A DNA stretch of 64,000 nt from the NCBI GenBank assembly GCA_028719205.1, contig JAQUKH010000009.1:1-64000 (forward strand), written 5' to 3'. A model generated the notes under the pieces. That model had not been told where the DNA came from. It saw nothing but the letters and a program-made list of their open reading frames with translations, and made no database searches. This document shows positions 11,191 through 36,956 of the stretch, one piece after another (position 1 is the first letter of the stretch; the number at the start of each line of letters is the position of its first letter). The position numbers were made by a program, and so were the translations under genes. The DNA comes from a bacterium. Lineage in GTDB: Bacteria > JACRDZ01 > JAQUKH01.

Positions 11191-11547
11191 ATGATGAACG
11201 ATTATACTGGAGTTCTTATTTTCTTAATAATAGCCATAGGTTTTGTGGCTATTATGTTTTCTGTAAGTTATGTTTTACGCCCGAGTAAACCCGATTTGAA
11301 AAAACTCCTGCCTTATGAATGTGGAAATATAGTTAACGAAGATGCCCGCGGACTTGTTTCAGTCAAATACTATCTAATAGCTATTATCTTTGTTCTTTTT
11401 GATGTAGAAACTGCTTTTATGTTTCCCTGGGCAGTTGTCTTCAGAGATTTTGGAATGTTTGGTTTAATTGAAATGGCTATATTCCTTTTAATTATTTTAA
11501 TCGGCTTTTGTTATGCATGGAAGAAAGGTGCTTTAGAATGGGATTAA
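11191..11547 (+). CDS. nuoA: NADH:quinone oxidoreductase subunit A
   Basis: 'PYECG', 'FVLFDVE', 'KKGALEW'. Confidence 0.96.
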
Positions 11548-12017
11548 TAGAAAATAAATTTGAAAAAAATATTTTAATTACTTCTGTTGATAAATTATTT
11601 AATTGGGCGCGCACGCGCTCTTTATGGCCGATGACGTTCGGATTGGCCTGCTGCGCGATCGAGATGATGGCTGCGGGAGGCGACCATTATGATCTGGATA
11701 GGTTTGGTATGGGAGTGTTTCGGGCTACTCCGAGGCAGGCGGACGTTATGATCGTGGCTGGGACGGTTACAAAAAAAATGGCGCCTATCGTCAGGCATCT
11801 TTATGACCAGATGCCTGAGCCAAAATATGTGATCGCTATGGGAAACTGCGCCATAAGCGGTGGTATTTTTAAAACATATAGTGTTGTGCAGGGAGTTGAG
11901 AAGATTATTCCGGTAGATGTTTATATACCGGGGTGCCCGCCGCGGCCGGAGGCTTTATTTTATGGCCTGTTTAAACTTCAAAAAAAGATTGAAAAAGAAA
12001 CAATCGCGAAAAAATAG
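11538..12017 (+). CDS. nuoB: NADH:quinone oxidoreductase subunit B (N2 cluster)
   Basis: 'GLACCAIEM', 'PRQAD', '[12 protein letters not shown]'. ATG at 11538. Confidence 0.97.
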
Positions 12018-12020
12018 ATT

Positions 12021-12491
12021 ATGGATATACAAAAGGATGTTGTAGAAAAAATAAAAGAGCGTTTCCCTGATGCGGTGAAAGATGTTTCTTCTTTCCGTGA
12101 CCAGCAGACAATAGTGGTAGATAAGAAATTTATTATTGATGTCTGTAAGTTTTTGAAAGAAACGCAGGAATTAGATTTTAGTTATTTGGTTGATTTAACG
12201 GCGGTTGATTTTCCTGAAAGAGATGCCCGGTTTAAAATGGTTTATAATTTATATTCAATATCTCAATCTAAAAGAATATTTATAAATGTGAATGTTGATT
12301 TGGATGATTTGGTTGTTCCTTCTCTTACCTGTTTATGGGAATCCGCTAATTGGGCAGAACGTGAAGCCTATGATATGTTTGGAATAAAATTTTCAGGGCA
12401 TCCGAATCTAAAAAGGCTTTTTATGCCGGAAGATTTTGAAGGATTTCCTTTGCGTAAAGATTTTTTATTGGATGGGGAGGGCTTAGAATAA
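12021..12491 (+). CDS. nuoC: NADH:quinone oxidoreductase subunit C
   Basis: 'ANWAEREAYDMFGI.F.GHP.L.R...PLRKDF'. Confidence 0.96.
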   Translation: MDIQKDVVEKIKERFPDAVKDVSSFRDQQTIVVDKKFIIDVCKFLKETQELDFSYLVDLTAVDFPERDARFKMVYNLYSISQSKRIFINVNVDLDDLVVPSLTCLWESANWAEREAYDMFGIKFSGHPNLKRLFMPEDFEGFPLRKDFLLDGEGLE

Positions 12492-12492
12492 G

Positions 12493-13665
12493 ATGTTTCA
12501 GCAAAACGAGATGACTATAGAGATGGGCCCCCAGCATCCCAGTACGCATGGTGTGTTGAGGCTTACCTTGCGTATAAGAGGCGAAACTGTTATTAATGTG
12601 GATCCGACGGTAGGCTATCTGCATAGGGGAATAGAGAAGATCGCTGAAAATTTGATGTATACGCAGTTTCAACCTTATACGGACAGGCTGGATTATATTT
12701 CCGCTCCGGCTAACAATTTAGCTTATGTTCAAACGGTTGAAAAATTATTGGGCGTTGACGTTACTCCCAGGGCCAAATTTATACGGGTTATTCTAGCGGA
12801 ATTAGCAAGGATCTCCAGCCATTTAGTATGGTTAGCTACTCATGGGCTTGATCTTGGCGCTATGAGTATGTTCCTTTATTGTTTCCGTGAGAGAGAATTA
12901 ATTATGGACCTTCTTGAGCTTTATTGCGGCTCAAGATTAACAACTACCTGTATGGAAATCGGCGGTGTCCGGGGTGATATCAGCCAGGAATTTATAGACA
13001 AACTTAATGATTTTATAAAGATGTTCCCTGATAAGATCCAGGATTATGAAACTCTACTGACAAAAAACAGGATCTGGTTGAAACGGACAAAAGGTATTGG
13101 AATAGTTTCAGCCGAACAGGCAATTAATTTTGGATTAACCGGGCCGACATTGCGTGGTTCAGGTGTCAAATACGATGTCCGGAAGGCACAGCCTTACGCG
13201 GCATATGACCAAATTGATTTTGAAGTTCCAATAGGTACGGTAGGGGATGTGTATGATAGATATCTTGTCAGAATGGAAGAAATGCGGCAGAGCACTAAAA
13301 TTATCCGGCAGGCATTAGAAAAATTACCGGAGGGATCAGTTAGAGTTCAGGATTCCAGGATCACCAGGCCTGACAAAGCTTTGCTTGCCACCAGTATGGA
13401 AGCTCTTATTCAATATTGTTATTTGATCATGGAAGGAATTATTCCACCCAAAGGAGAAGTTTATTCAAGTGTTGAAGGGTCTAAGGGAGAATTAGGTTTT
13501 TATATTTACAGTGACGGGACGTCTAAACCATATCGTTTAAAAATAAGGACTCCTTCATTTTATAATGTTGGAATTTTGCCCTCTATGGCTAAAGGGGCTT
13601 TCCTGGCTGACATGACGGCGTTTATTGCAAGTATTGATATAGTATTGGGTGAAATAGACAGATAG
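12493..13665 (+). CDS. nuoD: NADH:quinone oxidoreductase subunit D (quinone site, not a NiFe hydrogenase)
   Basis: 'GPQHPSTHGVLRL', 'GYLHRG.EK', 'DRLDY', C-terminus 'DIVLGEIDR'. No NiFe CxxC motifs. Confidence 0.97.
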   Translation: MFQQNEMTIEMGPQHPSTHGVLRLTLRIRGETVINVDPTVGYLHRGIEKIAENLMYTQFQPYTDRLDYISAPANNLAYVQTVEKLLGVDVTPRAKFIRVILAELARISSHLVWLATHGLDLGAMSMFLYCFRERELIMDLLELYCGSRLTTTCMEIGGVRGDISQEFIDKLNDFIKMFPDKIQDYETLLTKNRIWLKRTKGIGIVSAEQAINFGLTGPTLRGSGVKYDVRKAQPYAAYDQIDFEVPIGTVGDVYDRYLVRMEEMRQSTKIIRQALEKLPEGSVRVQDSRITRPDKALLATSMEALIQYCYLIMEGIIPPKGEVYSSVEGSKGELGFYIYSDGTSKPYRLKIRTPSFYNVGILPSMAKGAFLADMTAFIASIDIVLGEIDR

Positions 13666-13673
13666 GAGTTATT

Positions 13674-14627
13674 GTGGCGCTTTTACTTTTAATATTAGAA
13701 TCTCTATTGATATTTGTTTTTATACTACTTTTTTGCGTAGCTTATATAATTTTAGCTGAACGAAAAATTTTGGGGCATATGCAAGGACGTTTTGGGCCAA
13801 TGCATACAGGCTGGCACGGGATGCTGCAGCCGATCGCGGATATCCTTAAATGTTTAATTAAAGAAAATATAATGCCGACGGCGGCTGATAAGATCGTGTT
13901 TATTCTGGCCCCGGTTATGTCAATTTTGCCTGCTATTATGTGTCTGGCAGTTATTCCTTTCAGTAAAAATATCTATGCGGCCGATTTAAATATCGGGGTG
14001 CTTTATCTTCTCGCGCTGGGTTCTTTGGGTGTATACGGAGTAGCCACATGCGGTTGGGCGGGAAATAGTAAATACGGGCTTTTAGGAAGTATCCGTTCCA
14101 CGGCTCAATTAATAAGCTATGAGGTTCCCATGGGCCTGGCTGTTTTAGGGCCCGTTATGATGGCAAGGTCTTTGAATTTGATAAAAATAGTTGAAGCGCA
14201 AAAATCCTTTTGGTACATACTTATTCAACCTGTCGGATTTTTTATTTTCGTGGTATGCTCCGCGGCAGAGACTAATCGTATCCCTTTTGATTTACCTGAA
14301 GCTGAAACAGAGTTGGTCGCGGGTTTTCATGTTGAGTACAGCGGATTTAAATTTGTCGCGTTTTTTCTGGCAGAGTATATGCACATGTTTGTGACATCGG
14401 CTATGGCGGCTATCCTGTTTTTAGGCGGGTGGAAGGGGCCATTTTTCCCGGGGCCTATCTGGTTTATGATCAAGGTCTATTCATTTTTAGTACTTTATAT
14501 ATGGGCAAGAGGGACATTCCCGCGGTATCGTTATGATCAACTGATGCAGTTAGGATGGAAATTTTTGCTTCCGCTTTCTCTGGCAAATTTAGTATTAACA
14601 AGTATAGGAATAGTTATTTTTGGATAA
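13674..14627 (+). CDS. nuoH: NADH:quinone oxidoreductase subunit H
   Basis: 'ERK..G..Q.R.GP', 'AETNRIPFDLPEAETELVAGF..EY', 'PRYRYDQLM'. Confidence 0.97.
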   Translation: MALLLLILESLLIFVFILLFCVAYIILAERKILGHMQGRFGPMHTGWHGMLQPIADILKCLIKENIMPTAADKIVFILAPVMSILPAIMCLAVIPFSKNIYAADLNIGVLYLLALGSLGVYGVATCGWAGNSKYGLLGSIRSTAQLISYEVPMGLAVLGPVMMARSLNLIKIVEAQKSFWYILIQPVGFFIFVVCSAAETNRIPFDLPEAETELVAGFHVEYSGFKFVAFFLAEYMHMFVTSAMAAILFLGGWKGPFFPGPIWFMIKVYSFLVLYIWARGTFPRYRYDQLMQLGWKFLLPLSLANLVLTSIGIVIFG

Positions 14628-14630
14628 AAT

Positions 14631-15101
14631 ATGGGTAACTTTTTAGAAAAAATATTTTTATTGGAACTTTTTAAAGGGATGGGGGTAGTCTTTAAGCATG
14701 TGTTTATTAAGCCTGTTACAAGAATGTATCCTTTTGAAAAGCCGGTTTTGCCTAATTCTTCCCGCGGGCTGCATACTTTAATGCGTGACGCGGATACCGG
14801 GAATGAGCGTTGTGTCGGATGTTCATTATGCGTAAAGATATGCCCCAGCGGTGTGATCCATATGGTTACATCAAAAGGTGAAATGAATCAAAAACGGATA
14901 GATGAATATGAAATTGATATCAGCCGGTGCGCGTTTTGCGGTTTATGCGTGGATATTTGTCCTAAGAGCGCGATTGTTATGTCTGACCGTTTTGAGTTAG
15001 CTGTTTATGATAGAAAAAATTTATCATATAACAAGAATTTACTTTTAAAGATCGGTGAAGTGAAACAGAAGGAAAGTAAAGAGAAAGGAAAAGACAAATA
15101 G
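14631..15101 (+). CDS. nuoI: NADH:quinone oxidoreductase subunit I (2x[4Fe-4S])
   Basis: CVGCSLCVKICP and CAFCGLCVDICP. Confidence 0.95.
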   Translation: MGNFLEKIFLLELFKGMGVVFKHVFIKPVTRMYPFEKPVLPNSSRGLHTLMRDADTGNERCVGCSLCVKICPSGVIHMVTSKGEMNQKRIDEYEIDISRCAFCGLCVDICPKSAIVMSDRFELAVYDRKNLSYNKNLLLKIGEVKQKESKEKGKDK

Positions 15102-15616
15102 TGAAACAGGTTGTGTTTTTTATACTCTCTATTATTTCAATTTTTTCGGCATTAATGGTTATCAGCCGGAAAAACGTTGTTCACAGCGCGCTTTCTCTGG
15201 TTTTATTATTTTTCTCAACTTCAGGGCTTTTTGTTTTAATAGGGGCGGAATTGGTAGCCGCGCTGCAGATTTTTCTTTATGCCGGCGCTATAATAGTTAT
15301 CTATCTTTTTGTTATCATGATGATAGACCTGAGAAAAGGAACAACCGATGATATCGGTACAATGCCTAAGATGTTTATTGTCGGCGCGGGGGTTTTATTT
15401 TTCGCGGAAATAATTTATTTACTTTCAAAAGCAAATTACTCCGGGATCAAGGATATTTATTCCGGTGAAAAAATAAAAGAGTTAGGCGGCATGACTGGAG
15501 TTTTAGCAAAAATAATGTATACAAAATATTTATACCCGTTTGAGATAGTTTCACTGATTTTACTTATAGCCATGATCGGGGCGATCGTTTTAGCAAAAAG
15601 GGCGGATAAAAAATGA
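15101..15616 (+). CDS. nuoJ: NADH:quinone oxidoreductase subunit J
   Basis: 'QIFLYAGAI...FVIM', 'PFEIVSLILLIAMIGAI'. Confidence 0.95.
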   Translation: MKQVVFFILSIISIFSALMVISRKNVVHSALSLVLLFFSTSGLFVLIGAELVAALQIFLYAGAIIVIYLFVIMMIDLRKGTTDDIGTMPKMFIVGAGVLFFAEIIYLLSKANYSGIKDIYSGEKIKELGGMTGVLAKIMYTKYLYPFEIVSLILLIAMIGAIVLAKRADKK

Positions 15617-15915
15617 TACCTTTATATTATTATACTATTTTAAGCGCGGTTTTATTTGTGATCGGCCTTATCGGATTTTTGATAAGGAGGAATATAATTC
15701 TTTTGTTCATGAGCATTGAGGTTATGCTGAACGCGGTTAATATTAATTTAGTGTCATTTTCATCTTATTATGATTCTTTAGACGGGCAAATACTTTCAAT
15801 ATTTGTTATGGCGATAGCGGCGGCAGAAGCCGCGGTAGGATTTGGTATACTTATTGCGTTTTATCGTAATAAGAATGTAATTGACAGCGATAAGGCTGAC
15901 TTAATGAAATGGTAA
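15613..15915 (+). CDS. nuoK: NADH:quinone oxidoreductase subunit K
   Basis: 'SIEVMLNA', 'AAAEAAVG'. Confidence 0.96.
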   Translation: MIPLYYYTILSAVLFVIGLIGFLIRRNIILLFMSIEVMLNAVNINLVSFSSYYDSLDGQILSIFVMAIAAAEAAVGFGILIAFYRNKNVIDSDKADLMKW

Positions 15916-15921
15916 AAATAA

Positions 15922-17421
15922 ATGGATAAAAATAACATGATGGTCCCTATACTTATTATTTTTCCCTTGATCTGTACCGCGCTTGTAACATTTTTCGGCG
16001 AGAAAAACAAATTTACGCGTAATTTGTTCGCTATGATCCCGGCGCTGGTTACGTTTATTCTTGTAGTTAAATTAGCACCGGCGGTTTTAGACGGGGAAAG
16101 ATTCTATTTTACGTTTATAGACCGCGCGCCTTTTTTAATTCAATTCCGTATAGATTGTTTCGCGCTTTTAATGCTTATCGTTGTATCGTTTTTATGGATA
16201 TTTACTGTTTCGTACTCATATGGATATATGGCGGATGAGCATTCCCAGACACGGTATTATACCGCGTTGACCGGCTGTTTAGGAATAGTTGTCGGAATAG
16301 TTGTCGCGGCAAATTTATTTACGCTGTTTATTTTCTTTGAAATATTTACCTGTTGCGTTTATCCGTTAGTAATACATGAAGAGACCGATGAGTCATTTCG
16401 GTCCGGTGTAATGTATGGGGCTTATCTTTTAGGCGGAGGTTCTCTTATTTTCGCGGGGATGTTATTGCTATATTATTATTCAAACGGAAATTTAACATTT
16501 ACTAATTTTGGTATCCCGGGATTGGCTTTGGCGCCAAAATGGGCGCTATATCTTATGTTTTTTCTTTTCATGGCGGGTTTCGGCGTGAAGGCCGCGATCA
16601 TGCCTCTGCATGCGTGGCTCCCGCGGGCGATGGTGGCTCCAACCCCGATCAGTGCCCTTCTTCACGCGGTAGCAGTAGTAAATATGGGGCTTTACGGGGT
16701 AATAAGGGTTATTTACAATATTTTTGGGCCACAGTTATTCTCAGCCCTTCAGATGGATACCATTTTAGCCATTTTTGCCGCGATGACGATCATAAGCGCG
16801 GCGCTTATCGCTTTAAGGCAGAAGCAGATTAAGAAAATGCTGGCATATTCAACAGTTAACCAGTTGAGTTATGTTATTCTTGGTGTTTCCTCGGTGAATC
16901 CATACGCTTTTATGGGCGCGCTACTGCATATTTTTTATCACGCGCTTATGAAAATTACTTTATTTTATTCCGCTGGAACTATAATTAAACAGACCGGAAA
17001 GACTGATCTTAAGGATATGTCCGGGCTAGCCAAAAAAATGCCGATCACTTGTTTAGGTTTTACGATCGGCGCTATCGGGATAATCGGATTGCCGCCGATC
17101 GCAGGATGGATAAGTAAATGGAATATGGTTGAAGGATTTCTGAAAATTAACCAGCCTGTACTGGCGACAGTTTATATGATAAGCAGCATAATTGAATTAG
17201 GATATTTTTTACCTCCCATACTATGGGCATATTTCGGGAAAGAGATAGAATATGATCCTAAAAAATATAAAGTTGATAAACAAAAATGGGAAGCACCTGT
17301 TAACATGCTGGTCCCGATCGGCATGGTAACAATATTGTCTCTGGCTTTTGGATTATTCGGCTCGGTTCCGGTTCAGTTGTCAAAGGCTGTGGTAGCGGAA
17401 TTGCTAACAAAGACCTTTTAA
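15922..17421 (+). CDS. Extra antiporter-like subunit 1 (MrpD/NuoL-M-N family)
   Basis: TM5 'FFE', TM7 'GFGVKAA..PLHAWLP.AMVAPTPISALLHA', 'LAYSTVNQL', TM12 'GWISKW'. Confidence 0.92.
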   Translation: MDKNNMMVPILIIFPLICTALVTFFGEKNKFTRNLFAMIPALVTFILVVKLAPAVLDGERFYFTFIDRAPFLIQFRIDCFALLMLIVVSFLWIFTVSYSYGYMADEHSQTRYYTALTGCLGIVVGIVVAANLFTLFIFFEIFTCCVYPLVIHEETDESFRSGVMYGAYLLGGGSLIFAGMLLLYYYSNGNLTFTNFGIPGLALAPKWALYLMFFLFMAGFGVKAAIMPLHAWLPRAMVAPTPISALLHAVAVVNMGLYGVIRVIYNIFGPQLFSALQMDTILAIFAAMTIISAALIALRQKQIKKMLAYSTVNQLSYVILGVSSVNPYAFMGALLHIFYHALMKITLFYSAGTIIKQTGKTDLKDMSGLAKKMPITCLGFTIGAIGIIGLPPIAGWISKWNMVEGFLKINQPVLATVYMISSIIELGYFLPPILWAYFGKEIEYDPKKYKVDKQKWEAPVNMLVPIGMVTILSLAFGLFGSVPVQLSKAVVAELLTKTF

Positions 17422-17433
17422 CGAAGGGGGCGT

Positions 17434-18921
17434 ATGTTTCTGTCACCTAATTATTTACCTTTAATTGCAATTGTTGTCCCGATCATATCTATTTTGATCA
17501 GGCCGATAGTTGAGAACAAAAAGCATTATTTAGTGGCGTGCATAGCGCATTCTATAAGTTTTCTATGTGTGCTTGGAATGTATCCTTCAGTTGTCATGGA
17601 AGGAAAAACACTGGAAATTTTGTTTGACACAGGACTTGGGCCTCAATTACATTTCAGGGCTGATCTGGTCGGTTTCTATTTTGCTTTTGTCGCGTCTTTC
17701 ATGTGGGTACTGGCATCCATTTACTCTATTGAGTATATGAAAAAGGAGCATGAGGAGAGGAGATTTAATATATTTTCTTCTCTGTCTTTTGCTGGTATGC
17801 TCGGTGTTGTTTTTACCGGGAATTTATTCAGTTTATATTTGTTTTTTGAATTACTGACTGTGTCCTCATCAGTTCTTGTGTTTCATGAACAGAGCGAAGA
17901 GGCTATACGGACCGGATTAAAATATCTTTTTATGGGAGTTTTTGGCGGGCTGCTTTTGCTTTTTGCGATCATTGCTACATATTCAGTAGCGGGGCATGGA
18001 GATTTGAATAATTTAGGGATAAAGGAATTGCAGTCGTCACCGCTTTTGATGTTTATTTTCTGGGGATATATTATCGGGTTTGGTGTAAAGGCCGGAATGT
18101 GGGGTGTCCATATATGGCTTCCCAGCGCGCATCCGATCGCGCCCAGTCCCGCATCAGCTTTGCTTTCAGGCGTAATGATCAAGGCCGGGGCTTATGGGAT
18201 TTTTAGAACAGTGTATAATATTTTTGGCGCTGAATTTTTGGGCCAGAATCATGTGTTTATGATAAATTGTGTTCTGATGCTTGGGCTCGCGGGTATTTTT
18301 TACGGGTCGGCGGCGGCTATTACACAGAAAGAGCTGAAGAAAATGCTGGCTTATTCGAGCATATCACAGATAGGTTATATTATTATGGGGATAGCCCTTC
18401 TGACTAAAAATGGATTAGAGGGCGCGTTGATACATGTTTTGAACCATGCAATATTCAAAGGGCTTTTGTTCTTTTGCGCAGGGGCTTTTATATATAAAAC
18501 AGGAAAACGGCAATTAAGCGATTTAAAAGGAATTGGGAAGATAATGCCGAAAACAACATTAATGTTTACAATAGCCGCGGCGTCGATTATCGGGCTTCCG
18601 CTATTTAATGGTTTTGTCGGTAAATGGTTTTTGGCATGGGGGGCATTGGACGCGGCAAAGGCCGGAGTGTATGGAAAAAGCACAGGTATCGTTGCCTTGG
18701 GAGTTCTTCTTTTAAGCAGTTTAATGAATTTAGTATATTATGCTCCGATAGTTATCGGCGCGTGGTTTGGGGAAGCGGGAGAAGTATCTGATAAAAAGGA
18801 TCCAAATTTTTTAATGCTGATACCTATGTATATTTTGGGCGCGCTTATTTTGATCTTAGGTATTGCCCCGGCAATACCCGTAAGTATTTGTCAAAGAATT
18901 GCGGGAGGATTTTTCCAATAA
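17434..18921 (+). CDS. Extra antiporter-like subunit 2 (MrpD-like)
   Basis: 'FFE', 'GFGVKAG...HIWLPSAHPIAPSPASALLSGVMIK', 'LAYSSISQIG', 'GFVGKW'. Confidence 0.92.
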   Translation: MFLSPNYLPLIAIVVPIISILIRPIVENKKHYLVACIAHSISFLCVLGMYPSVVMEGKTLEILFDTGLGPQLHFRADLVGFYFAFVASFMWVLASIYSIEYMKKEHEERRFNIFSSLSFAGMLGVVFTGNLFSLYLFFELLTVSSSVLVFHEQSEEAIRTGLKYLFMGVFGGLLLLFAIIATYSVAGHGDLNNLGIKELQSSPLLMFIFWGYIIGFGVKAGMWGVHIWLPSAHPIAPSPASALLSGVMIKAGAYGIFRTVYNIFGAEFLGQNHVFMINCVLMLGLAGIFYGSAAAITQKELKKMLAYSSISQIGYIIMGIALLTKNGLEGALIHVLNHAIFKGLLFFCAGAFIYKTGKRQLSDLKGIGKIMPKTTLMFTIAAASIIGLPLFNGFVGKWFLAWGALDAAKAGVYGKSTGIVALGVLLLSSLMNLVYYAPIVIGAWFGEAGEVSDKKDPNFLMLIPMYILGALILILGIAPAIPVSICQRIAGGFFQ

Positions 18922-19403
18922 TGAGAAAGATAAAGTTTTTGATATTATTATTAACATTATTTATGATTTTCTCCGTTTCTCTAAAAGCGGAAGAGAATGA
19001 AGTTGTGAGTGAGGAAGGCCAAAGCGCCCCGCATGAGACCGGAACGCCTTTAGTATATTATTTGAACTGGGCGGGCCTGATTGCGATGTGTGTGATTGTT
19101 TTGAGGGAGGTTAAAAATAAAAAAAGTGATAAAAAACACCAGGAAGATAAAAAAGATATTGAGTTTTATGAAGCCGGTTCTGAAAAACCAAATGATCCGG
19201 AGCATAAGTTCCAAAAACCGGTGCTTAAACCGGTTCTTTTGATACTTTTAGCGGTGTTAATATTTTTTGGCGAGCAGTTGCCGGTATTATCTGATTTTCA
19301 TGAAAATTTAGCTGCCGGGTATTTTAGATTTATTTTTAAAATTCTTATAGGTGTTTTAATGTTATCGTACGGCCTTTCCAGTATGGAAGAGGAACATCAT
19401 TAG
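18921..19403 (+). CDS. Uncharacterised membrane protein inside the nuo-like operon (~160 aa)
   Basis: ATG overlaps the upstream TAA (taATG). Signal-peptide-like N-terminus, about 3 further hydrophobic segments, ends EEEHH. Confidence 0.8.
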   Translation: MRKIKFLILLLTLFMIFSVSLKAEENEVVSEEGQSAPHETGTPLVYYLNWAGLIAMCVIVLREVKNKKSDKKHQEDKKDIEFYEAGSEKPNDPEHKFQKPVLKPVLLILLAVLIFFGEQLPVLSDFHENLAAGYFRFIFKILIGVLMLSYGLSSMEEEHH

Positions 19404-19412
19404 GAGATATTA

Positions 19413-20963
19413 ATGGTTATCGAAAGCAGTTTACCTTTATTTGCTATCTTTATTCCTTTATTGGGATCAATTGCGATTCCGATATTAAGGGGGAAAATAG
19501 AGAAATATGTTAATCAATTTACTGTATTAATAACGGTCTTGACCTTTGCGATGGTTTTGCTGATGTATCCGGATATAGGCCGCGGGAATATTCTGGAGAA
19601 GAGCTTTAATTCAGGATTTAGTATTGGTTTTCTTTTTCAGGTAGACGCTTTAGGTTATTTTATTGGATTTATTTCCGCCTTTATCTGGATGCTGACAAGT
19701 TTTTATAGTATTGAGTACATGGCTAATAAAGGCAATTTACTGAGATATAATATGTTTTCTTTGCTTTCTCTTGCAGGTATGCTCGGAGTTGTTTTTACCG
19801 GGAATCTTTTTAGTTTGTATCTTGCGTTTGAATTATTGACGGTTGCGTCCTATGTTTTAATTATACAGGAAGAAAATTCTAAAGCCATGCGGGCAGGTAT
19901 GATCTATCTTTTTATGGGGATCGCAGGCGGATTGATACTTTTATTTTCGATTTTAGCAACATACGCAATGGCGGGAACCGGAGATTTTACGGGTCTAGCC
20001 TCAAAATTATCAGGGAGCCCTTTATTACATTCTTTATTGCCATATGTTTTCTGGGGTTATATTATCGGTTTTGGAGTAAAGGCAGGCCTTTTCCCATTTC
20101 ACGTATGGGTTCCTGAAGCATATTCCATAACGCCTTCTCCTTCATCTGCGCTTTTTGCCGGTGTAATGAAAAAAGCGGGGGCATATGGTATTTTACGCGC
20201 TATTTACAGTATTGTAGGGATGGATTTGCTTAGAGGTGAAACCATGCTGACAGTCTTGTTAGTTTTTTCACTGATAAGTATATTTTTAGGTTCTGCCATA
20301 GCTATATCACAAACAGAATTAAAAAAGATGCTTGCATATTCCAGTATCGCTCAGATCGGATATATTGTGTTGGGTTTTGCGCTCCTTACTCCAAGAGGCG
20401 CGACGGGCGGGACTTTACATATTTTAAATCACGCGTTAACAAAAAGTACTTTATTTTTAGCCGCAGGAAGTTTTATTTTTAAAAAAGGAATAGTAAATAT
20501 AGCTGATCTGGAAGGAATAGGGAAAAAAATGCCTGTTACTACTGCCTGTTTCACTATTGCCGGCTTATCAATGATCGGATTTCCGCCTTTTTGTGGTTTT
20601 ATCAGTAAATGGTTTCTGGCGTTAGGTTCATTGGATGTGGTGAATTATGGCTCATATAGTTTTTATGTCGGGGTGATTGCGTTAAGTACACTAATGCTTA
20701 GCAGTTTTATGAATCTGGTTTATTACGGGCCTGTTATTTATAAGGCATGGTTTGGAGGAGAAAATTCAGACAATCCTTCACTGGAATACGCGGTGACTGA
20801 TGAGGAATCAAAAATCGAGGATCCAAGTTTATATATGTTAATACCTTTAATTATTTTAACTGCCGGGATCGTGTGTTTTGGTATTTTTCCGCAGTTTCCT
20901 GTATCGTTCGTTCAAAAGATCGTAGATGGCTTTTTTTCTGCCGGAGGGTGTATAGTTAAATGA
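19413..20963 (+). CDS. Extra antiporter-like subunit 3 (MrpD-like, close paralog of subunit 2)
   Basis: 'AFE', 'FWGYIIGFGVKAG', 'GVMKKAG', 'ELKKMLAYSSI', 'GFISKW'. Confidence 0.92.
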   Translation: MVIESSLPLFAIFIPLLGSIAIPILRGKIEKYVNQFTVLITVLTFAMVLLMYPDIGRGNILEKSFNSGFSIGFLFQVDALGYFIGFISAFIWMLTSFYSIEYMANKGNLLRYNMFSLLSLAGMLGVVFTGNLFSLYLAFELLTVASYVLIIQEENSKAMRAGMIYLFMGIAGGLILLFSILATYAMAGTGDFTGLASKLSGSPLLHSLLPYVFWGYIIGFGVKAGLFPFHVWVPEAYSITPSPSSALFAGVMKKAGAYGILRAIYSIVGMDLLRGETMLTVLLVFSLISIFLGSAIAISQTELKKMLAYSSIAQIGYIVLGFALLTPRGATGGTLHILNHALTKSTLFLAAGSFIFKKGIVNIADLEGIGKKMPVTTACFTIAGLSMIGFPPFCGFISKWFLALGSLDVVNYGSYSFYVGVIALSTLMLSSFMNLVYYGPVIYKAWFGGENSDNPSLEYAVTDEESKIEDPSLYMLIPLIILTAGIVCFGIFPQFPVSFVQKIVDGFFSAGGCIVK

Positions 20964-23464: not shown

Positions 23465-23471
23465 GAGAAAT

Positions 23472-25007: not shown

Positions 25008-25012
25008 TTTTT

Positions 25013-26470: not shown

Positions 26471-26938
26471 ATGGAACTTTCACCTAAACTTATAAAAGAA
26501 ATAAATGAGTTAGCGGATGCATGCCCGAATAAAAAAGGGGCCTTGCTTCCGGTTCTATATTTGGTTCAGAAAGAATATGGTTTTCTTTCAGAGAGCATTT
26601 TAAAGGATATAGCTTTTATTTTAAATATACCGGAGGTTTTTGTTTTTGGCGTGACGACTTTTTATACAATGTTCCATACAAGTGAGCAGGCTAAAAATAT
26701 TATTTCAGTTTGTACAAATATAACCTGCTCATTATTAGGGAGCGAACATATTATTAAGACATTAGAAAATATCTTAAAGATAAAGCCGGGTGAGATGACA
26801 AAAGACAAAAAGTTCAGTTTGAACCTGGTGGAATGTTTGGGTTCCTGCGGAACTGCGCCTGTTATGATGGTAAATGGGGACCTTCATGAGAATCTTACAG
26901 AAGAAAAAATAAAGAGAATTTTAGATACATATAAATGA
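26471..26938 (+). CDS. nuoE: NuoE copy 1 ([2Fe-2S])
   Basis: CTNITC...CLGSC, 'TFYTMF'. Confidence 0.93.
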   Translation: MELSPKLIKEINELADACPNKKGALLPVLYLVQKEYGFLSESILKDIAFILNIPEVFVFGVTTFYTMFHTSEQAKNIISVCTNITCSLLGSEHIIKTLENILKIKPGEMTKDKKFSLNLVECLGSCGTAPVMMVNGDLHENLTEEKIKRILDTYK

Positions 26939-26956
26939 TCAATTGTGGAGATATAA

Positions 26957-28231
26957 ATGGATTATCCTAGTATAACTTTGCGGAATATTAAAGAGCCTGA
27001 TTCACATAAAATAAATACTTATTTAAAATCGGGCGGATATAAAGGATTAACACGTGTTTTGGATGATATGGTTCCGGAAGAGGTTATTGGAAGCATAAAA
27101 CGTTCAGGGCTGCGCGGCCGCGGCGGAGCTTCATTTCCTACCGGGTTGAAATGGGAGTTTGCCCGCAGGGACAGGAATTTCCCGAAATATATTGTATGTA
27201 ATGCGGATGAGGGCGAGCCGGGAACGTTTAAAGACAGGATCCTTATTGAAAAAGATCCGTTCGCGATCATTGAAGGAATGACGATAGCGGGTTTTTCAGT
27301 GGGAGCTGAAAAGGGATATATTTATATAAGAGGTGAATATGTTAAAGGGGCGGAGATCCTGAGAAAGGCGATAAAAGAAGCAAAGGAAAAAAATTTTCTC
27401 GGGAAAAATATCCAGGGGAAAGATTTTAATTTTGACTTGGATGTTTATATGGGCGCAGGGTCATATATCTGCGGTGAAGAGACCGCCTTGATCGAATCTC
27501 TGGAGGGTAATGTGGGATATTCTCGTATTAAACCGCCTTTTCCGATAAATGTCGGATTATGGGATAAGCCTACAGTATTGAATAATGTTGAGACATTTTC
27601 TCTGGTCGCCCCGATCATTGTTAACGGCGATGAATGGTTCTCGAATATAGGCGCCCGTGATTTTCCCGGCACAATGATATATTCTTTGAGCGGGCATGTA
27701 AATAAACCGGGACTGTATGAACTTCCGACAGGGATAAATTTAAAAACTATTATTTATGAGTTTGGCGGAGGTATAAAAGACGGTAAAAAATTGAAGGCGG
27801 TTTTTCCCGGAGGCCTTTCTTCCGGATGTTTAAATGAAAATGAAATTGATATCCCGATGGACCATAAAGCGCTGGCAAAAGTGGGCAGCATGTTAGGTTC
27901 GGGCGCGATAATAGTAATTAATGATGAAACTTGTATGGTAGAGATCGCACGCCGGGGAATGAAATTTTTCAGGCATGAGTCTTGCGGCAAATGTGTGCCA
28001 TGCCGTGAAGGGACATTTTGGATCTCAAAGATAATGTTACGGATCGTGAATGGAGAGGGGAAAAAAGAAGATCTGGATCTGATTAAGGACCTTGGACAGG
28101 GTATGAAAACCGCGGCGTTTTGCGGGTTGGGCTTAGCAGCGGCAAATCCTGTTTTAAGTATTATAAAGAATTTCCCTAAGGATTTTGAATCGCATATTAA
28201 TGATAAGAAATGCGCGTATAATAATAAGTGA
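26957..28231 (+). CDS. nuoF: NuoF copy 1, canonical short FMN/NADH-binding subunit
   Basis: 'GLRGRGGA.FPTG.KW', 'NADEGEPGTFKD', 'GAGSYICGEETAL', 'ESCGKCVPCREG...C'. Confidence 0.95.
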   Translation: MDYPSITLRNIKEPDSHKINTYLKSGGYKGLTRVLDDMVPEEVIGSIKRSGLRGRGGASFPTGLKWEFARRDRNFPKYIVCNADEGEPGTFKDRILIEKDPFAIIEGMTIAGFSVGAEKGYIYIRGEYVKGAEILRKAIKEAKEKNFLGKNIQGKDFNFDLDVYMGAGSYICGEETALIESLEGNVGYSRIKPPFPINVGLWDKPTVLNNVETFSLVAPIIVNGDEWFSNIGARDFPGTMIYSLSGHVNKPGLYELPTGINLKTIIYEFGGGIKDGKKLKAVFPGGLSSGCLNENEIDIPMDHKALAKVGSMLGSGAIIVINDETCMVEIARRGMKFFRHESCGKCVPCREGTFWISKIMLRIVNGEGKKEDLDLIKDLGQGMKTAAFCGLGLAAANPVLSIIKNFPKDFESHINDKKCAYNNK

Positions 28232-28272
28232 ATAGCCGTTTGTGAATAGTAGAAAGAAAAATAGGAAGGATT

Positions 28273-33639: not shown

Positions 33640-33655
33640 AAGTGAGGTGACTAAA

Positions 33656-34126
33656 ATGACAGATGTAAAATTCATCAAGAATATTTCGATTTTTAAAGAT
33701 CTGGATGATGAAGAAGTAAAAAAAATCGCGGGCATCGCTACTGAAAAAACATATCCCGCTAAAACAGTTATTTTTACTGAGGGACAGACAGGCGCGAAAT
33801 TGTACATTGTTAAACAGGGGAGTGTTAGAATAACTAAGGTAATCCGGGAAGGGGAAAAACAGATTTTGGATATAATCGAAGAAGGGGAATATTTCGGAAA
33901 GATGTCTTTCATTGATGGCGGGGAACATTCAGCTACAGTCGAAACTGTTAAAGAATCTACATTAATATGTATTGAAAAAGCAGACTTTGAAAAATTGGCT
34001 CAGGATGATCCAGCCGGTGGTTTCAGAATAATGAAAGCATTGTCGGTTGTTACTATCGAGATATTGCGGGAAATGAATGATAAGTTTGTTGAGTTAGTAA
34101 ATTATATGTGGGGTGGAAGGAGATAG
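33656..34126 (+). CDS. Stand-alone cyclic-nucleotide-binding domain protein 1 (no HTH)
   Basis: 'IFTEGQTG..LYIV..GSV.I...FGKMSFIDG..HSATV'. RBS GAGGTG. Confidence 0.9.
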   Translation: MTDVKFIKNISIFKDLDDEEVKKIAGIATEKTYPAKTVIFTEGQTGAKLYIVKQGSVRITKVIREGEKQILDIIEEGEYFGKMSFIDGGEHSATVETVKESTLICIEKADFEKLAQDDPAGGFRIMKALSVVTIEILREMNDKFVELVNYMWGGRR

Positions 34127-34138
34127 GAGCGAAAAAAT

Positions 34139-34648
34139 ATGGTTATAGAATATGTTGCGGCTAAACAAACGAGTTTTGATACAACCAAAGCGTTAGAGAT
34201 AATAAAACAGTATAAAGGTAAACGTGGGTCATTAATTTCAGTTCTGCAAAGGATCCAGGATGCCTATGGATTTTTGCCTGAGCCGATATTGGACCTGGTT
34301 GCTGAAGGCTTGAATGTTTATCTGACAGATGTATATGGGGTAGTAACTTTTTATTCACAATTTTATTTGACGCCTCGGGGTAAAAACGTTATAAGGATTT
34401 GTCGCGGGACGGCATGCCATGTAAAGGGATCAGACAGAATTATGGAGAAATTGCTTGAAAAACTGGAAGTTAAGCCCGGGGAGATGACAAGAGACGGGAA
34501 TTTTACCATAGAAGAGGTTGCGTGCCTTGGCGCGTGCGGTATGGCGCCTGTTATGGTAATTAATAAAGATACATTTGGAGAGGTTACCACTGCTAAATCT
34601 TTAGAGATTGTTGAAAGCCACAGTGTTAACAAGGGAGAGAAAAAATGA
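34139..34648 (+). CDS. NuoE copy 2 / HydC-like subunit
   Basis: 'VYGVVTFYSQF...CRGTACHVKG...ACLGACGMAPV'. Confidence 0.93.
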   Translation: MVIEYVAAKQTSFDTTKALEIIKQYKGKRGSLISVLQRIQDAYGFLPEPILDLVAEGLNVYLTDVYGVVTFYSQFYLTPRGKNVIRICRGTACHVKGSDRIMEKLLEKLEVKPGEMTRDGNFTIEEVACLGACGMAPVMVINKDTFGEVTTAKSLEIVESHSVNKGEKK

Positions 34649-36444
34649 ATCTGGATGAAGAGATAAAAGATGATAGAGTTCAGATATTAGTTTGTCTTGG
34701 AACAGGCGGACAAGCCGCGGGCGGAGACGCGGTTATTCATAAATTTGAAGAAGAAGTAAAAAAACACCACATTGACGCGGTGGTACAAAAGCCGTGTGTT
34801 GTAAGTAAGTCAGGATGCCGCGGTCTTTGCGCGAAGGATCTGTTGGTTGATATAATTATGCCTGGAAAAGGCCAGCATACATATATGAAAGTTACTAAAG
34901 AAATGGTTGTAAGGATCGTTGAGGAAGATATCCTGCAGGGAAATCCGATCCAGGAATGGCTGGTAACGGATGATTACCATAAATTTTATGATACTCAGGT
35001 ACGTAATATATTAAGCAGGTGCGGCAAAATTGACCCTGAAAATATTGATGAATATATTTCTCATGGCGGATATAAGGCATTAAGAAAAGTATTATTTGAG
35101 ATGACTCCTGATGAAGTAATTGAGGTAATAACAAATTCTAAATTAAGAGGCCGCGGAGGAGCCGGTTTTCCTACCGGAATGAAATGGAGTTTCGCGAAGA
35201 TGGCCCAGGCCGAGCATAAATATGTTGTTGTTAACGCGGATGAAGGAGATCCGGGCGCGTTCATGGATAGGAGCGTTTTAGAGGGTGATCCGCATTCAGT
35301 AATTGAAGGATTGATAATTGCCGCATACACTATGGGCGCTACTCATGGTTATTTTTACGCGCGGGCGGAATATCCTTTAGCTATAAAAAGGCTGGGGATC
35401 GCTCTTGAACAGGCAAGAGAAAAAAATTTATTAGGGAAAAATATCCTTGGCAAAGATTTTAATTTTGATATTGAAATTAAAGAAGGCGCCGGCGCGTTTG
35501 TCTGCGGCGAGGAAACCGCATTGATGGAATCAATTGAAGGGAAAAGAGGTATGCCGAGGATCCGGCCTCCTTTTCCGGCACGCAAGGGGTTATGGGAATC
35601 TCCTACAAACATTAATAATGTCAAAACCTATGCCAATATTCCTCTTATAATTAACAAAGGCGCGGAATGGTATCTTAATTTAGGGACAAAAAAAAGCCCG
35701 GGAACCGCGATCTTCGCGCTTACAGGGAAGATCAAAAATACCGGATTGGTAGAAGTCCCGATGGGTATGACATTACGGGCAATTATTTTTGATATATGCG
35801 GCGGTATGAGCGGGAAGAACCGAAAGTTTAAGGCTGCGCAGTTGGGCGGGCCTTCAGGCGGATGCCTTCCTGAGTCTCTTTTAGATACGCCTATTGATTT
35901 TGATTCATTAACTGCTGCCGGCGCTATGATGGGTTCCGGAGGTATTGTAGTTATGGATGATACTACATGCATGGTTGACATGGCGAGATTTTTCTTACAG
36001 TTCACGCAGAATGAGTCATGTGGTAAATGCACTCCCTGCAGGATAGGAACCCGCGCCATGCTTGAGATCCTTACAAGAATAACGGAGGGCAGAGGCCAGC
36101 CGAATGATATGGATTTACTCGCGGATATGGCCGGTGATATAAAAATGGCGTCACTTTGCGGTTTAGGACAGACCGCGCCAAATCCGGTACTCAGCACCCT
36201 CAGGTATTTCCGTGATGAATATGAGGCTCACATTATAGAAAAGCGATGTCCGGCAAGTTCATGTGTTAACCTGCTGAAATTTGAAGTTAATCCGAAACTT
36301 TGCAAAATGTGCGGTATTTGTATGAAAAATTGTCCGACCCAGGCAGTTATCTGGGAAAAGAAAACTGTCGCGAGAATAGATAAACCTAAATGTATAAAAT
36401 GCAGAACCTGCATAGATGTTTGTCCGTTCAGGGCAATAGGATAA
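34645..36444 (+). CDS. NuoF copy 2 / HydB-like long diaphorase (electron-bifurcating type)
   Basis: N-terminal thioredoxin-like Fe-S domain, 'ADEGDPGAFMD', 'GAGAFVCGEETAL', 'GGPSGG', C-terminal CKMCGICMKNCP and CIKCRTCIDVCP. Confidence 0.93.
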   Translation: MNLDEEIKDDRVQILVCLGTGGQAAGGDAVIHKFEEEVKKHHIDAVVQKPCVVSKSGCRGLCAKDLLVDIIMPGKGQHTYMKVTKEMVVRIVEEDILQGNPIQEWLVTDDYHKFYDTQVRNILSRCGKIDPENIDEYISHGGYKALRKVLFEMTPDEVIEVITNSKLRGRGGAGFPTGMKWSFAKMAQAEHKYVVVNADEGDPGAFMDRSVLEGDPHSVIEGLIIAAYTMGATHGYFYARAEYPLAIKRLGIALEQAREKNLLGKNILGKDFNFDIEIKEGAGAFVCGEETALMESIEGKRGMPRIRPPFPARKGLWESPTNINNVKTYANIPLIINKGAEWYLNLGTKKSPGTAIFALTGKIKNTGLVEVPMGMTLRAIIFDICGGMSGKNRKFKAAQLGGPSGGCLPESLLDTPIDFDSLTAAGAMMGSGGIVVMDDTTCMVDMARFFLQFTQNESCGKCTPCRIGTRAMLEILTRITEGRGQPNDMDLLADMAGDIKMASLCGLGQTAPNPVLSTLRYFRDEYEAHIIEKRCPASSCVNLLKFEVNPKLCKMCGICMKNCPTQAVIWEKKTVARIDKPKCIKCRTCIDVCPFRAIG

Positions 36445-36479
36445 AAAATATAAAATAGATAGGATGAAAGGAGAAAACC

Positions 36480-36956
36480 ATGGTAGATAAAGCGGTGTTA
36501 AAAAATATTCCACTTTTTAAAAATTTGGATAATAAAGAATTGGATGTAATTGCCAAGATCGTTAAAGAGGAGGCTTACCCTTCAGAAGAGATAATTTTTA
36601 GCGAGAATATGCAGGGCGGCAGGTTATTTATTATAAAAAAGGGAACGGTTAAGATAAGTAAGACCCTAAGGGAAGGCGAGAGGCAAAATCTGAATATACT
36701 TAAGGAAAATGAGTTTTTTGGAGAATGTTCTTTTATTGATTCCAGGCCGCATTCAGCTACGGCGGAGACCTTAAAAAATACCGATTTATTTATTATAGAA
36801 AAATCAGATTTTGATAAATTAGAAGAAACTAATCCTATGTGCGGCTATAAAGTTTTAAGGACTCTGACTTTAACCATTAATGGTATTCTCCGGCAAATGG
36901 ATGAAAAATTTATTGATATGGTTAAATATGTTTGGGAATACGGAAGCAAATCTTAG
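36480..36956 (+). CDS. Stand-alone cyclic-nucleotide-binding domain protein 2 (paralog of 33656-34126)
   Basis: 'IPLFKNL...LFIIKKGTV.I...FFGECSFIDSRPHSATA'. Confidence 0.9.
   Translation: MVDKAVLKNIPLFKNLDNKELDVIAKIVKEEAYPSEEIIFSENMQGGRLFIIKKGTVKISKTLREGERQNLNILKENEFFGECSFIDSRPHSATAETLKNTDLFIIEKSDFDKLEETNPMCGYKVLRTLTLTINGILRQMDEKFIDMVKYVWEYGSKS

Follow-up and report, generated by a model that had tools for sequence, protein, structure and literature searches.

How many ion-translocating modules can a single complex I carry? The enzyme usually has three and the highest number reported is five, and a locus in the genome of an uncultured bacterium, probably an anaerobe, raises the possibility of six. 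The locus lies in a stretch of 64,000 nucleotides (nt) from contig JAQUKH010000009.1 of assembly GCA_028719205.1, which we refer to as the window. Positions 11191-36956 of the window hold a single operon of 22 genes on the + strand, as determined by a Pfam scan of every open reading frame (ORF). Judging from the sequences, we lean toward the view that this operon encodes one very large complex I-type enzyme, with a six-module membrane arm and a doubled electron-input head, that would pass electrons from NADH and ferredoxin to menaquinone.

Layout and conservation of the operon

The gene order is nuoABCDHIJK, D1, D2, X, D3, L*, nuoM, nuoN, nuoE1, nuoF1, GG, cNMP1, nuoE2, nuoF2, cNMP2 (Table 1). 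The complex I core subunits NuoA, B, C, D, H, I, J, K, M, and N are all in this one cluster. The Pfam scans confirmed every gene of the initial annotation, as well as the coordinates, the order, and the tight packing: the intergenic gaps range from -40 to +41 nt, and stop and start codons overlap several times. Six of the genes, at 15922-26470, match the antiporter family PF00361, so the claim of six antiporter modules holds.

The initial annotation had also considered that separate nuo and mrp loci might have been joined by misassembly. This can be ruled out because two other genomes of the genus share the gene order and because an independent contig bridges both the nuoK/D1 and the L*/nuoM junctions. 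That contig (9,744 bases, built with a different assembler from run X1, which may be the source sample) covers 14455-24198, from nuoH to nuoM, with zero differences. Another contig from X1 covers the fusion point of the 1788-amino-acid (aa) GG gene.

For comparison, five other species of the phylum were available; all of the genomes are metagenome-assembled genomes (MAGs). In G001, which belongs to the same genus, the order is identical and all 22 genes are present, including X, the 1788-aa fusion, both cNMP genes, and E2F2. G002, from the same genus, has the same order without X. In G003, which is from another family of the same small phylum, the order is nuoB-C-[E2-type, F2-type (613 aa), NuoG-like (896 aa), cNMP-like]-nuoD-H-I-J-K, and after nuoK it continues as D1-Dc'-X-(half PF00361 module, 325 aa)-L* (1017 aa)-nuoM-nuoN. 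The operon architecture is real and conserved. The 325-aa ORF of G003 (C23 32611-33588; L101 14612-15589), between X and the 1017-aa L*, has the first half of the PF00361 domain only. It may be a half module or a split gene, or a frameshift may have arisen in sequencing.

Table 1. Features of the operon and its candidate promoter (window coordinates)
Feature	Position	Strand	Basis
Sigma-70-like promoter candidate, TTGAAA-16-TATAAT	10916..10943	+	11/12 hexamer positions; consensus match only
nuoA, B, C, D, H, I, J, K (Q-module and proximal membrane subunits)	11191..15915	+	Each matches its own Pfam family
D1, Mrp 'Db'-type module, 499 aa	15922..17421	+	PF00361 (3.9e-61); Db clade
D2, Mrp 'Dc'-type module, 495 aa	17434..18921	+	PF00361; Dc clade
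X, small four-helix membrane protein, 160 aa from ATG 18921	18921..19403	+	ORF opens at TTG 18888 (171 aa)
D3, second Dc-type module, 516 aa	19413..20963	+	PF00361; Dc clade
L*, MrpA-type distal module at the usual place of nuoL, 834 aa	20960..23464	+	PF00361 and PF00662
nuoM, 511 aa	23472..25007	+	PF00361; canonical NuoM clade
nuoN, 485 aa	25013..26470	+	PF00361; canonical NuoN clade
nuoE1 (155 aa) and nuoF1 (424 aa), flavoprotein pair of canonical length	26471..28231	+	Pfam
GG, fusion of two NuoG/FdsA-like halves, 1788 aa	28273..33639	+	Every domain found twice
cNMP1, stand-alone cyclic-nucleotide-binding-like protein, 159 aa	33647..34126	+	PF00027 (6.3e-24)
nuoE2 (169 aa) and nuoF2 (599 aa), BfuC/BfuB (HydC/HydB)-type pair	34139..36444	+	Pfam; NuoF2 aligns with solved Bfu B subunits
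cNMP2, second cNMP-like protein, 158 aa	36480..36956	+	PF00027 (7e-21)

The best promoter-like site of the operon is in the divergent intergenic region 5' of nuoA. The flanking genes are unrelated to complex I: a sugar transferase is upstream, on the opposite strand, and an LPG-synthase-like membrane protein and a copper ATPase are downstream. The gene for the membrane protein (family LPG_synthase_TM, 36932-37912) overlaps the end of cNMP2 by 25 nt and is also the next gene in G001 (C96 65250-66218), so it may be co-transcribed with the operon.

Four of the six modules appear to derive from an Mrp antiporter

The initial annotation labeled the gene at the place of nuoL as nuoL*, and the extra D genes might be taken for duplicates of NuoM. 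Neither a NuoL nor a NuoM assignment holds up. By blastp, D1 is 53% identical to the Db protein of the genome's own Mrp cluster, which is on contig C12. Dc of that cluster shares 49% identity with D2 and 48% with D3 (D2 and D3 are 51% identical to each other), and L* is 48% identical to the A protein of the cluster. The identity of these four proteins to NuoM or NuoN is only 22-34%. Among proteins with solved structures, the best relatives of L* are MbhH (2.3e-50), MrpA (1.8e-44), and MrpD, with Nqo12 from T. thermophilus at 1.5e-32.

We used FastTree to build a tree of 90 antiporter-like proteins. The support values are local only, and some long branches were flagged. The tree has five clades: NuoM, NuoN, Da, Db/Dc, and A. 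The sister of L* is the A protein of the C12 Mrp cluster, with a support of 98, and D1 falls in the Db clade. D2 and D3 fall in two Dc sub-branches that also contain the first and second Dc genes of two Mrp clusters (L007 and L010); D3 groups with the second Dc genes of L007, L010, and G003. NuoM and NuoN group with their counterparts from canonical operons, and just one gene from the window is in the NuoM clade. Canonical NuoL sequences fell below the score filter and were left out of the tree, so the view that L* is not an ortholog of NuoL rests on the ranking of the matches in the PDB and on the sister relation to Mrp A. Taken together, the sequences indicate that D1, D2, D3, and L* are paralogs of the genome's own Mrp proteins Db, Dc, and A, not duplicates of Nuo proteins.

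The genome, which is 92.7% complete, has 12 matches to PF00361: six in this operon, four in the C12 Mrp cluster, and two in a cluster that resembles group-4 [NiFe]-hydrogenases. None of these 12 is a canonical nuoL, so L* must stand in for NuoL. The hydrogenase-like cluster is split over the ends of two contigs of this genome (G000), C13 (L003 8477-10134) and C37 (L004 814-5411), and it encodes a NuoB-like protein, the two PF00361 proteins, a NuoH-like protein, and a fused NuoCD-like large subunit of 523 aa.

To see whether the modules retain functional residues, we aligned the six modules of the operon with the four of the C12 cluster. The glutamate of transmembrane helix (TM) 5, the lysine of TM7, and the histidine that follows it are present in 10/10. 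The lysine of TM12 is present in all but NuoM, which has a glutamate. In canonical complex I, this residue is glutamate in NuoM and lysine in NuoN. The relay residues are E140, K223, H230, and K399 in D1; E139, K219, H226, and K397 in D2; E140, K223, H230, and K399 in D3; and E149, K230, H237, and K415 in L*. As judged from the alignment, all six modules keep the canonical charged relay residues.

Another possibility that the initial annotation raised is that D1-D3 belong to a separate Mrp complex whose small subunits are encoded elsewhere. There is indeed an mrpEFGBC-D-D-D-A cluster elsewhere in the genome: MrpE, F, G, B, and C are all absent from the operon in the window and are all present in the C12 cluster. 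But the C12 cluster includes D and A genes of its own, which means that the C12 Mrp does not require the nuo-linked copies. The gene order of this cluster, which is of the ten-gene type (L001 9231-18808; L002 2726-10306), is mrpE-F-G-B-C-Da-Db-Dc-A, with an A protein of 762 aa and four antiporter-like subunits.

To find the source of the cassette, we searched species-representative genomes with a family profile for L* and recovered 80 loci. Sixty of these contain at least two genes for Mrp small subunits, and 18 contain neither Mrp small-subunit genes nor Nuo core genes. Nuo core genes are found in 3/80 (L005, L012, and L050), and L005 has Mrp small-subunit genes as well. Because most of the loci are of Mrp type, the parent of the cassette is probably the widespread type of Mrp with multiple D subunits. 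One such Mrp cluster (L007) has the order Dc-X-Dc'-A, as in the cassette in the window. We also scanned metagenomes with L*, and the same operon was in none of the 12 loci that we obtained. Eight of these are canonical complex I (L107-L114) and two are pairs of D and A (L103 and L105); the other two are a solitary A-type gene (L104) and a short piece of an Mrp cluster (L106). In L009, L103, and L105, a Db-type gene (~520 aa) is paired with an A-type gene (604 aa), without Nuo or Mrp partners.

Other recruitments of Mrp modules into complex I

Two of the loci with Nuo core genes have extended arms. In the Elusimicrobia MAG UBA5214 (L005 and L115, DHVG01000002.1), the order is nuoABCDH-I(643 aa)-JK-D-D-L(639)-M-N, which gives five modules. 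This nuo cluster directly follows an Mrp cluster, E-F-G-B-C-Da-D-D-A906, and the nuo-linked D genes are sister to the D genes of the adjacent Mrp cluster, which points to an independent and local recruitment. A cluster from an uncultured actinobacterium MAG (L050/L116, CAJVYJ010000046.1) has nuoI(673 aa)-J-K-M-N-D-D-A and is cut by the end of the contig. It has five modules too, and its Mrp-type genes are after nuoN, not before nuoM. These gene orders and phylogenetic positions indicate that complex I has probably taken up Mrp cassettes more than once, in three or more of the lineages that we have seen. The remaining locus, L012 from an uncultured Coriobacteriia, encodes a NuoN-like protein, Db, Dc, A (962 aa), NuoB-like (253 aa) and NuoD-like (427 aa) proteins, NuoH, and NuoA, and is thus one more case in which a redox module is combined with several D genes.

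Protein X is a candidate accessory subunit

X has no match in Pfam or NCBIfam. At E <= 1e-3, it matched 14 representatives among 1.84 billion proteins. His127, Glu128, and Gly133 are invariant, and the first loop is rich in His and Glu. An AlphaFold2 (AF2) model has four helices, with a predicted local distance difference test (pLDDT) score of 75.7. When we compared this model to the PDB with Foldseek, we found nothing at E <= 0.001, and a search of a protein atlas with X gave no usable match. Homologs of X are encoded after a Dc-type gene at five loci: in the nuo operons of both G001 and G003, in the Mrp cluster of G001, and in the Mrp clusters L006 and L007. On the basis of this gene neighborhood, X is a candidate accessory subunit of cassettes with multiple D modules.

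L* ends in a long repetitive tail

The last core helix of L* is followed by ~220 further residues and, at the end, by a hydrophobic helix. Within this tail are 25-residue tandem repeats of the type W-E-V-F-G-R-A-D-T-N-Y-D-x-M-L. Two copies are clear (residues 691-740), with degenerate copies upstream (window 22910-23180, residues ~650-740, in frame). Four copies are clear in the L* of G001 (C96 80169-82850), and three related ones are found in the genome's own Mrp A; the L* of G003 has a different repeat of about 33 residues. From these differences, the array appears to be evolutionarily labile.

In the AF2 model of L*, the core is confident, and the tail (605-834) consists of helices of 22-40 residues that end in a TM helix; we used the geometry of the tail for secondary structure only. 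A 25-residue helix would be ~37 Å long. This is comparable with the lateral-helix insert of 26 residues that is reported, in the accessible part of PMC9040806, for the 2M enzymes and those of Manganitrophaceae. We considered that there might be one tail repeat per module and dropped the idea: the tails overlap in length between classes (the pattern that we used for this comparison caught only part of the A-type proteins), and because the copy number differs between congeners with the same genes, there is no one-to-one rule.

The quinone-reactive core

The nuoA-K core genes match PF00507, PF01058, PF00329, PF00346, PF00146, Fer4, PF00499, and PF00420. The initial annotation stated that the quinone-site His and Tyr of NuoD are retained and that NiFe cysteines are absent, and an alignment to Nqo4 agrees. 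NuoD aligns over its full length with NuoCD2 of Aquifex (1.3e-131) and with Nqo4 of T. thermophilus (5.4e-127). His19 and Tyr68 of NuoD align with His38 and Tyr87 of Nqo4, which are quinone-site residues. We found no NiFe cysteine motifs in NuoD: its N-terminal GPQHPSTHG and C-terminal IDIVLGEIDR are without Cys. The cysteine motifs for the clusters of NuoB and NuoI are visible in their sequences. By these residues, the quinone site is intact.

A doubled electron-input head

The operon encodes two NuoEF pairs. NuoF1 scores 561 bits against the NuoF equivalog model, for which the cut-off is 558.65. Its best matches among solved structures are the cores of Bfu B subunits (1.5e-137), narrowly above NuoF from Aquifex (1.4e-124), and it is without the N- and C-terminal cluster domains. 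NuoF2 does have such domains, with four Cys in the N-terminal domain and two C-terminal CxxCxxCxxxC (4Fe-4S) motifs. Residues 13-598 of NuoF2 align with 9bov_B (5.8e-232), NiFe-HydB 7t2r_B, StnB 8oh5_B, HydB 7q4v_B, and NfnB 9n5u_B. In other words, NuoF2 is a full-length HydB/Bfu-type protein that aligns end-to-end with solved Bfu B subunits, which agrees with the earlier proposal of a bifurcating, HydBC-like input. nuoE2 is directly 5' of nuoF2, with an overlap of 4 nt. Because NuoF2 is of the full-length Bfu type, this head matches the predicted Nuo-Bfu class (see below).

Where the initial annotation listed two NuoG/FdhF genes, the domains are indeed doubled, but they are in one uninterrupted ORF, GG, whose fused halves are 45% identical. 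All of the Fe-S Cys/His motifs are kept in each half. The second half matches FdsA from R. capsulatus over its full length (2.4e-198). In both halves, the catalytic Cys that ligates Mo is replaced by Glu, while the adjacent His and the active-site Arg are kept. Among the 120 homologs listed, 104 have Cys at this position and 13 do not match the pattern; Glu is found only in the three fusion proteins. Similarly, only three proteins span the fusion junction among the matches listed from a search of 5.8 billion proteins. The single NuoG-like copy in G003 has Tyr at the Mo-ligand position and no Arg.

A role of GG in formate oxidation can be rejected because the catalytic Cys (or Sec) is missing from both halves. 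We conclude from these substitutions that the halves of GG are probably NuoG-type scaffolds and wires, not formate dehydrogenases. The two NuoEF pairs and the two NuoG-like docking domains suggest a two-headed N-module. The members of the pairs are 40% (E1/E2), 49% (F1/F2), 45% (halves of GG), and 45% (cNMP1/cNMP2) identical, a pattern that a single old duplication of an E-F-G-cNMP unit could explain.

Proteins of ~158 aa that resemble cyclic-nucleotide-binding domains are conserved in the nuo operons of the phylum, beside the Bfu-type NuoEF and NuoG genes. For instance, cNMP2 is 54% identical to the protein encoded after the NuoG-like gene in the nuo operon of G003 (C23 24299-24772). CRP-type domains have an Arg in the phosphate-binding cassette. 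The cassette of cNMP1 is FGK...EHSAT, and cNMP1, cNMP2, and the homolog from G003 all have a His where the Arg that binds the cyclic phosphate is expected from the canonical motif. Given their sequences and location, the cNMP-like proteins may be ligand-sensing accessory subunits of the input head.

A model for the enzyme and its energetics

In our model, NuoL was replaced by a cassette that would have been copied from a multi-D Mrp: Db (D1), Dc (D2), X, Dc' (D3), and the MrpA-type L*. The membrane arm would have the order N-M-D1-D2-D3-L*, with six ion-translocating modules, and the long lateral helix of L*, built from repeats and ending in a terminal TM anchor, would strap the modules together. 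The peripheral arm would be built on the double NuoG, which is presumably derived from a formate dehydrogenase and catalytically dead, and each half would provide one site for docking and for an Fe-S wire. One half would take NuoE1F1 (NADH), and the other would take the Bfu-type NuoE2F2 (NADH and ferredoxin). Reduced ferredoxin and NADH from anaerobic carbon metabolism, as suggested by genes for pyruvate:ferredoxin oxidoreductase (PFOR) and acetyl-CoA synthase, would be oxidized together. Menaquinone would be reduced, and the electrons would go on to NapC/NirT-type and multihaem cytochromes. Up to ~7 ions might be translocated per 2e-, so that energy conservation would be concentrated at one coupling site. 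We infer the co-assembly of the subunits, the order of the modules, the stoichiometry and species of the ion, the direction, and the roles of X and the cNMP-like proteins from the sequences.

The rest of the gene content is in line with an anaerobic metabolism in which reduced ferredoxin and NADH are produced and quinol hands its electrons to cytochromes. The genome encodes RnfA/E, two PFOR-type genes, acetyl-CoA synthase, a RuBisCO-like gene, and NapC/NirT-like and other multihaem cytochromes. We did not find COX1, cytochrome bd, NrfD, NarI, cytochrome b, or Sdh_cyt in the genome, whose 92.7% completeness means that these absences are not proven. A few kilobases downstream of the C12 Mrp cluster, there is a 2,526-aa ORF with NapC/NirT-like multihaem matches.

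Our estimate of the ion ratio assumes one ion per module and one proximal channel, after the canonical 4 H+/2e-. The potentials are about -280 mV for NADH, about -500 mV for ferredoxin, and -74 mV for menaquinone, as given in the accessible part of PMC9304861. Extra pumps would be sensible only with a low-potential input, with a low membrane potential, or in reverse. The first of these options fits with the occurrence of extra pumps alongside a Bfu head in this phylum.

Several observations weigh against the model. At 7 ions/2e-, the redox drop would balance only ~60 mV with NADH, ~90 mV with NADH and ferredoxin, or ~120 mV with ferredoxin. These low values imply that the ratio is below additive, that the proton-motive force (pmf) is low, or that the enzyme runs backwards. 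The biosynthesis of quinones is hinted at only by two UbiA/MqnP-like proteins and a weak MenA-like one, all of them below the equivalog cut-offs. The halves of GG are nearer to the soluble FdsA (~1e-198) than to NuoG from solved complex I (1e-62 to 1e-86), so the docking of GG onto NuoCDI is unproven. X is absent from the operon of G002, the tail of L* differs by two repeats between congeners with the same gene set, and its pLDDT in the AF2 model (605-834) is <50. The extended-arm cluster of Elusimicrobia UBA5214 has no nuoEFG downstream. Finally, the evidence consists of MAG sequences, and the operon is known here from its genes.

Alternative readings

The alternative that best withstands these data, although we still rate it as unlikely, is that the same giant complex works in reverse, so that an influx of ions drives electrons from menaquinol to NAD+ and ferredoxin for the Wood-Ljungdahl pathway. 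Such a direction is already in print, in the accessible part of PMC9040806, for 2M complex I and for the five-pump Complex_I_3 of Manganitrophaceae. A high ratio of ions to electrons would make the uphill transfer feasible at a modest pmf. The acetyl-CoA synthase and RuBisCO-like genes imply a need for low-potential reductant if carbon is fixed, and the multihaem cytochromes could import electrons. On the other hand, no terminal oxidase and no NarI-, bc-, NrfD-, or Sdh-type family that could build the pmf was found in the 92.7%-complete genome, which makes reverse flow less likely, and the genome has Rnf, which already links ferredoxin and NAD. From this gene content, forward operation seems most likely, by a modest preference.

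An improbable reading is that the operon encodes two enzymes. One would be a six-module complex of the 11-subunit type that is fed by ferredoxin, like NDH-1 of cyanobacteria, and the other would be a soluble Bfu-type complex of GG, E1F1, E2F2, and cNMP proteins that interconverts electrons of NAD(H) and ferredoxin. The Elusimicrobia cluster offers an analog, with its extended arm, its enlarged NuoI of 643 aa, and no nuoEFG downstream. The greater similarity of GG to soluble FdsA than to complex I NuoG also fits this reading, as does the location of the E/F/G genes in this genus, at the 3' end, after nuoN and outside of the nuo cluster. However, in G003 the E2-F2-G-cNMP genes are between nuoC and nuoD, which is the Nuo-Bfu position, and GG has neither a catalytic Cys nor an additional domain for a substrate, which leaves no obvious third substrate for a soluble complex. 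Also, the gap between nuoN and nuoE1 is 0 nt, and that between nuoE1 and nuoF1 is 18 nt.

We give similarly little credence to the idea that D1, D2, X, D3, and L* form a built-in or detachable cation/proton antiporter, which would turn part of the H+ gradient into a Na+ gradient or vice versa (as proposed for the Mrp-like module of Mbh-type hydrogenases) while the enzyme keeps a near-canonical stoichiometry. The cassette does fall in Mrp clades, its closest solved relatives are MbhH and MrpA/MrpD, the thermodynamic limit on 7 ions/2e- would favor a non-additive role, and the genome has a second, stand-alone Mrp with four modules. But the cassette is without MrpE, F, G, B, and C, which accompany D and A in 60/80 related loci, and all of its modules share the relay residues of NuoM and NuoN. 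The sequences also give no hint of a sodium site, although no search aimed at one was made.

We therefore return to a single forward-running enzyme as our preferred reading. Its bolder parts are less likely to all be right at once: it is doubtful that this is jointly the longest complex I arm yet, with six functional pumps, X as a new subunit, a double flavoprotein head that merges NADH and ferredoxin, ~7 ions/2e-, an origin by duplication of the genome's own Mrp into the place of NuoL, the same route taken independently in Elusimicrobia and Actinomycetota, and cNMP-like proteins as ligand-sensing regulators.

If this bolder reading is right, then the insertion of an Mrp cassette would act as a general "gear shift" in the evolution of complex I among energy-limited anaerobes. 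How far the relay of redox energy reaches along the arm, and whether the ion stoichiometry scales with the number of modules, are open mechanistic questions. The enzymes with four modules (2M and green) or five (Manganitrophaceae) are known only from genomes. A conserved version with six modules would be the most extreme test case for models of long-range coupling and an attractive target for cryo-electron microscopy. The operon also unites extra pumps with a confurcating Bfu head, which would give the extra pumps an energetic rationale.

Comparison with known systems

It's useful to compare this operon with the complex I variants and related enzymes that have been described. The closest for the input head is the Nuo-Bfu class predicted by Schut et al. 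2022, in which BfuABC replaces NuoEFG in the middle of the cluster to give a 14-subunit complex; this complex was proposed to co-oxidize NADH and ferredoxin and to reduce menaquinone (PMC9304861). As far as the accessible part of that paper describes the class, the nuo cluster in the window resembles it in having BfuB/BfuC-type NuoF and NuoE proteins with N- and C-terminal cluster domains, and G003 resembles it further in having the Bfu genes between nuoC and nuoD. Unlike that class, the window has its head genes after nuoN, a second NuoEF pair of canonical length, a BfuA/NuoG homolog that is doubled and fused, two cNMP-like genes, and a six-module arm. By gene order, the operon in the window seems to be a derivative of the Nuo-Bfu layout that is seen in G003.

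For the membrane arm, the precedent is green complex I of rhizobia (Degli Esposti and Martinez-Romero 2016), in which Mrp-type subunits replace NuoL (PMC9040806). We compared it with the window by its description in the accessible part of that source. In both cases, Mrp-type genes are between nuoK and nuoM instead of nuoL, but green complex I has two replacements and four modules, while the window has four replacements (plus X) and six modules. In our tree, the cassette is nearest to the genome's own Mrp genes; the match to green complex I is by description only.

The accessible part of PMC9040806 describes two other extended enzymes. Complex_I_3 of Ca. Manganitrophaceae has Mrp-type subunits in the place of NuoL, an extended lateral helix, and five pumps, and its high ion ratio is discussed. 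The window differs in having six modules (three D-type, one A-type, NuoM, and NuoN) and a Bfu-type head, and its host is an anaerobe in whose genome we found no oxidase genes. The 2M complex I of Nitrospira and others (Chadwick et al. 2018) has an added second NuoM and a lengthened lateral helix (PMC9040806). The window shares the extra modules, and its 25-residue repeat period is similar to the 26-residue 2M insert; however, it has a single gene in the NuoM clade, and its extra modules are of the Mrp D type.

The multi-D ("group 3") Mrp complexes, with the layout mrpEFGB(B)C-D-(D)n-A, share the Db, Dc, and A clades with the window. Some of these clusters also have X after a Dc gene, and A tails of the same 25-residue repeats. 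Unlike them, the cassette is without MrpE, F, G, B, C, and the proximal Da, and it is combined with NuoA-K, NuoM, and NuoN instead. Similarly, each half of GG has the domain set of FdsA from FdsABG of R. capsulatus (6tg9), with the active-site His and Arg, and GG differs in its Glu for the Mo-ligand Cys, in being two fused copies, and in being encoded in a nuo operon.

The initial annotation suspected that this architecture had no prior description, and this was partly right. In the literature that we searched, which was mainly outside subscription journals, and among the loci that we examined, we found no six-module complex I, although the supplements of PMC9304861 and PMC9040806 may list similar operons. 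Nor did we find, in either, a fused double NuoG, an operon with both a canonical-length and a Bfu-type NuoEF, or X as a named subunit. The Mrp-type replacement of NuoL, 2M, the five-pump enzyme, and Nuo-Bfu are in print, as can be seen from the accessible parts of these two papers. Thus, what appears to be known is the replacement of NuoL by Mrp-type subunits and, as a prediction, the Bfu head, and what appears to be new here is the combination of six modules, a fused double NuoG, and dual NuoEF pairs.

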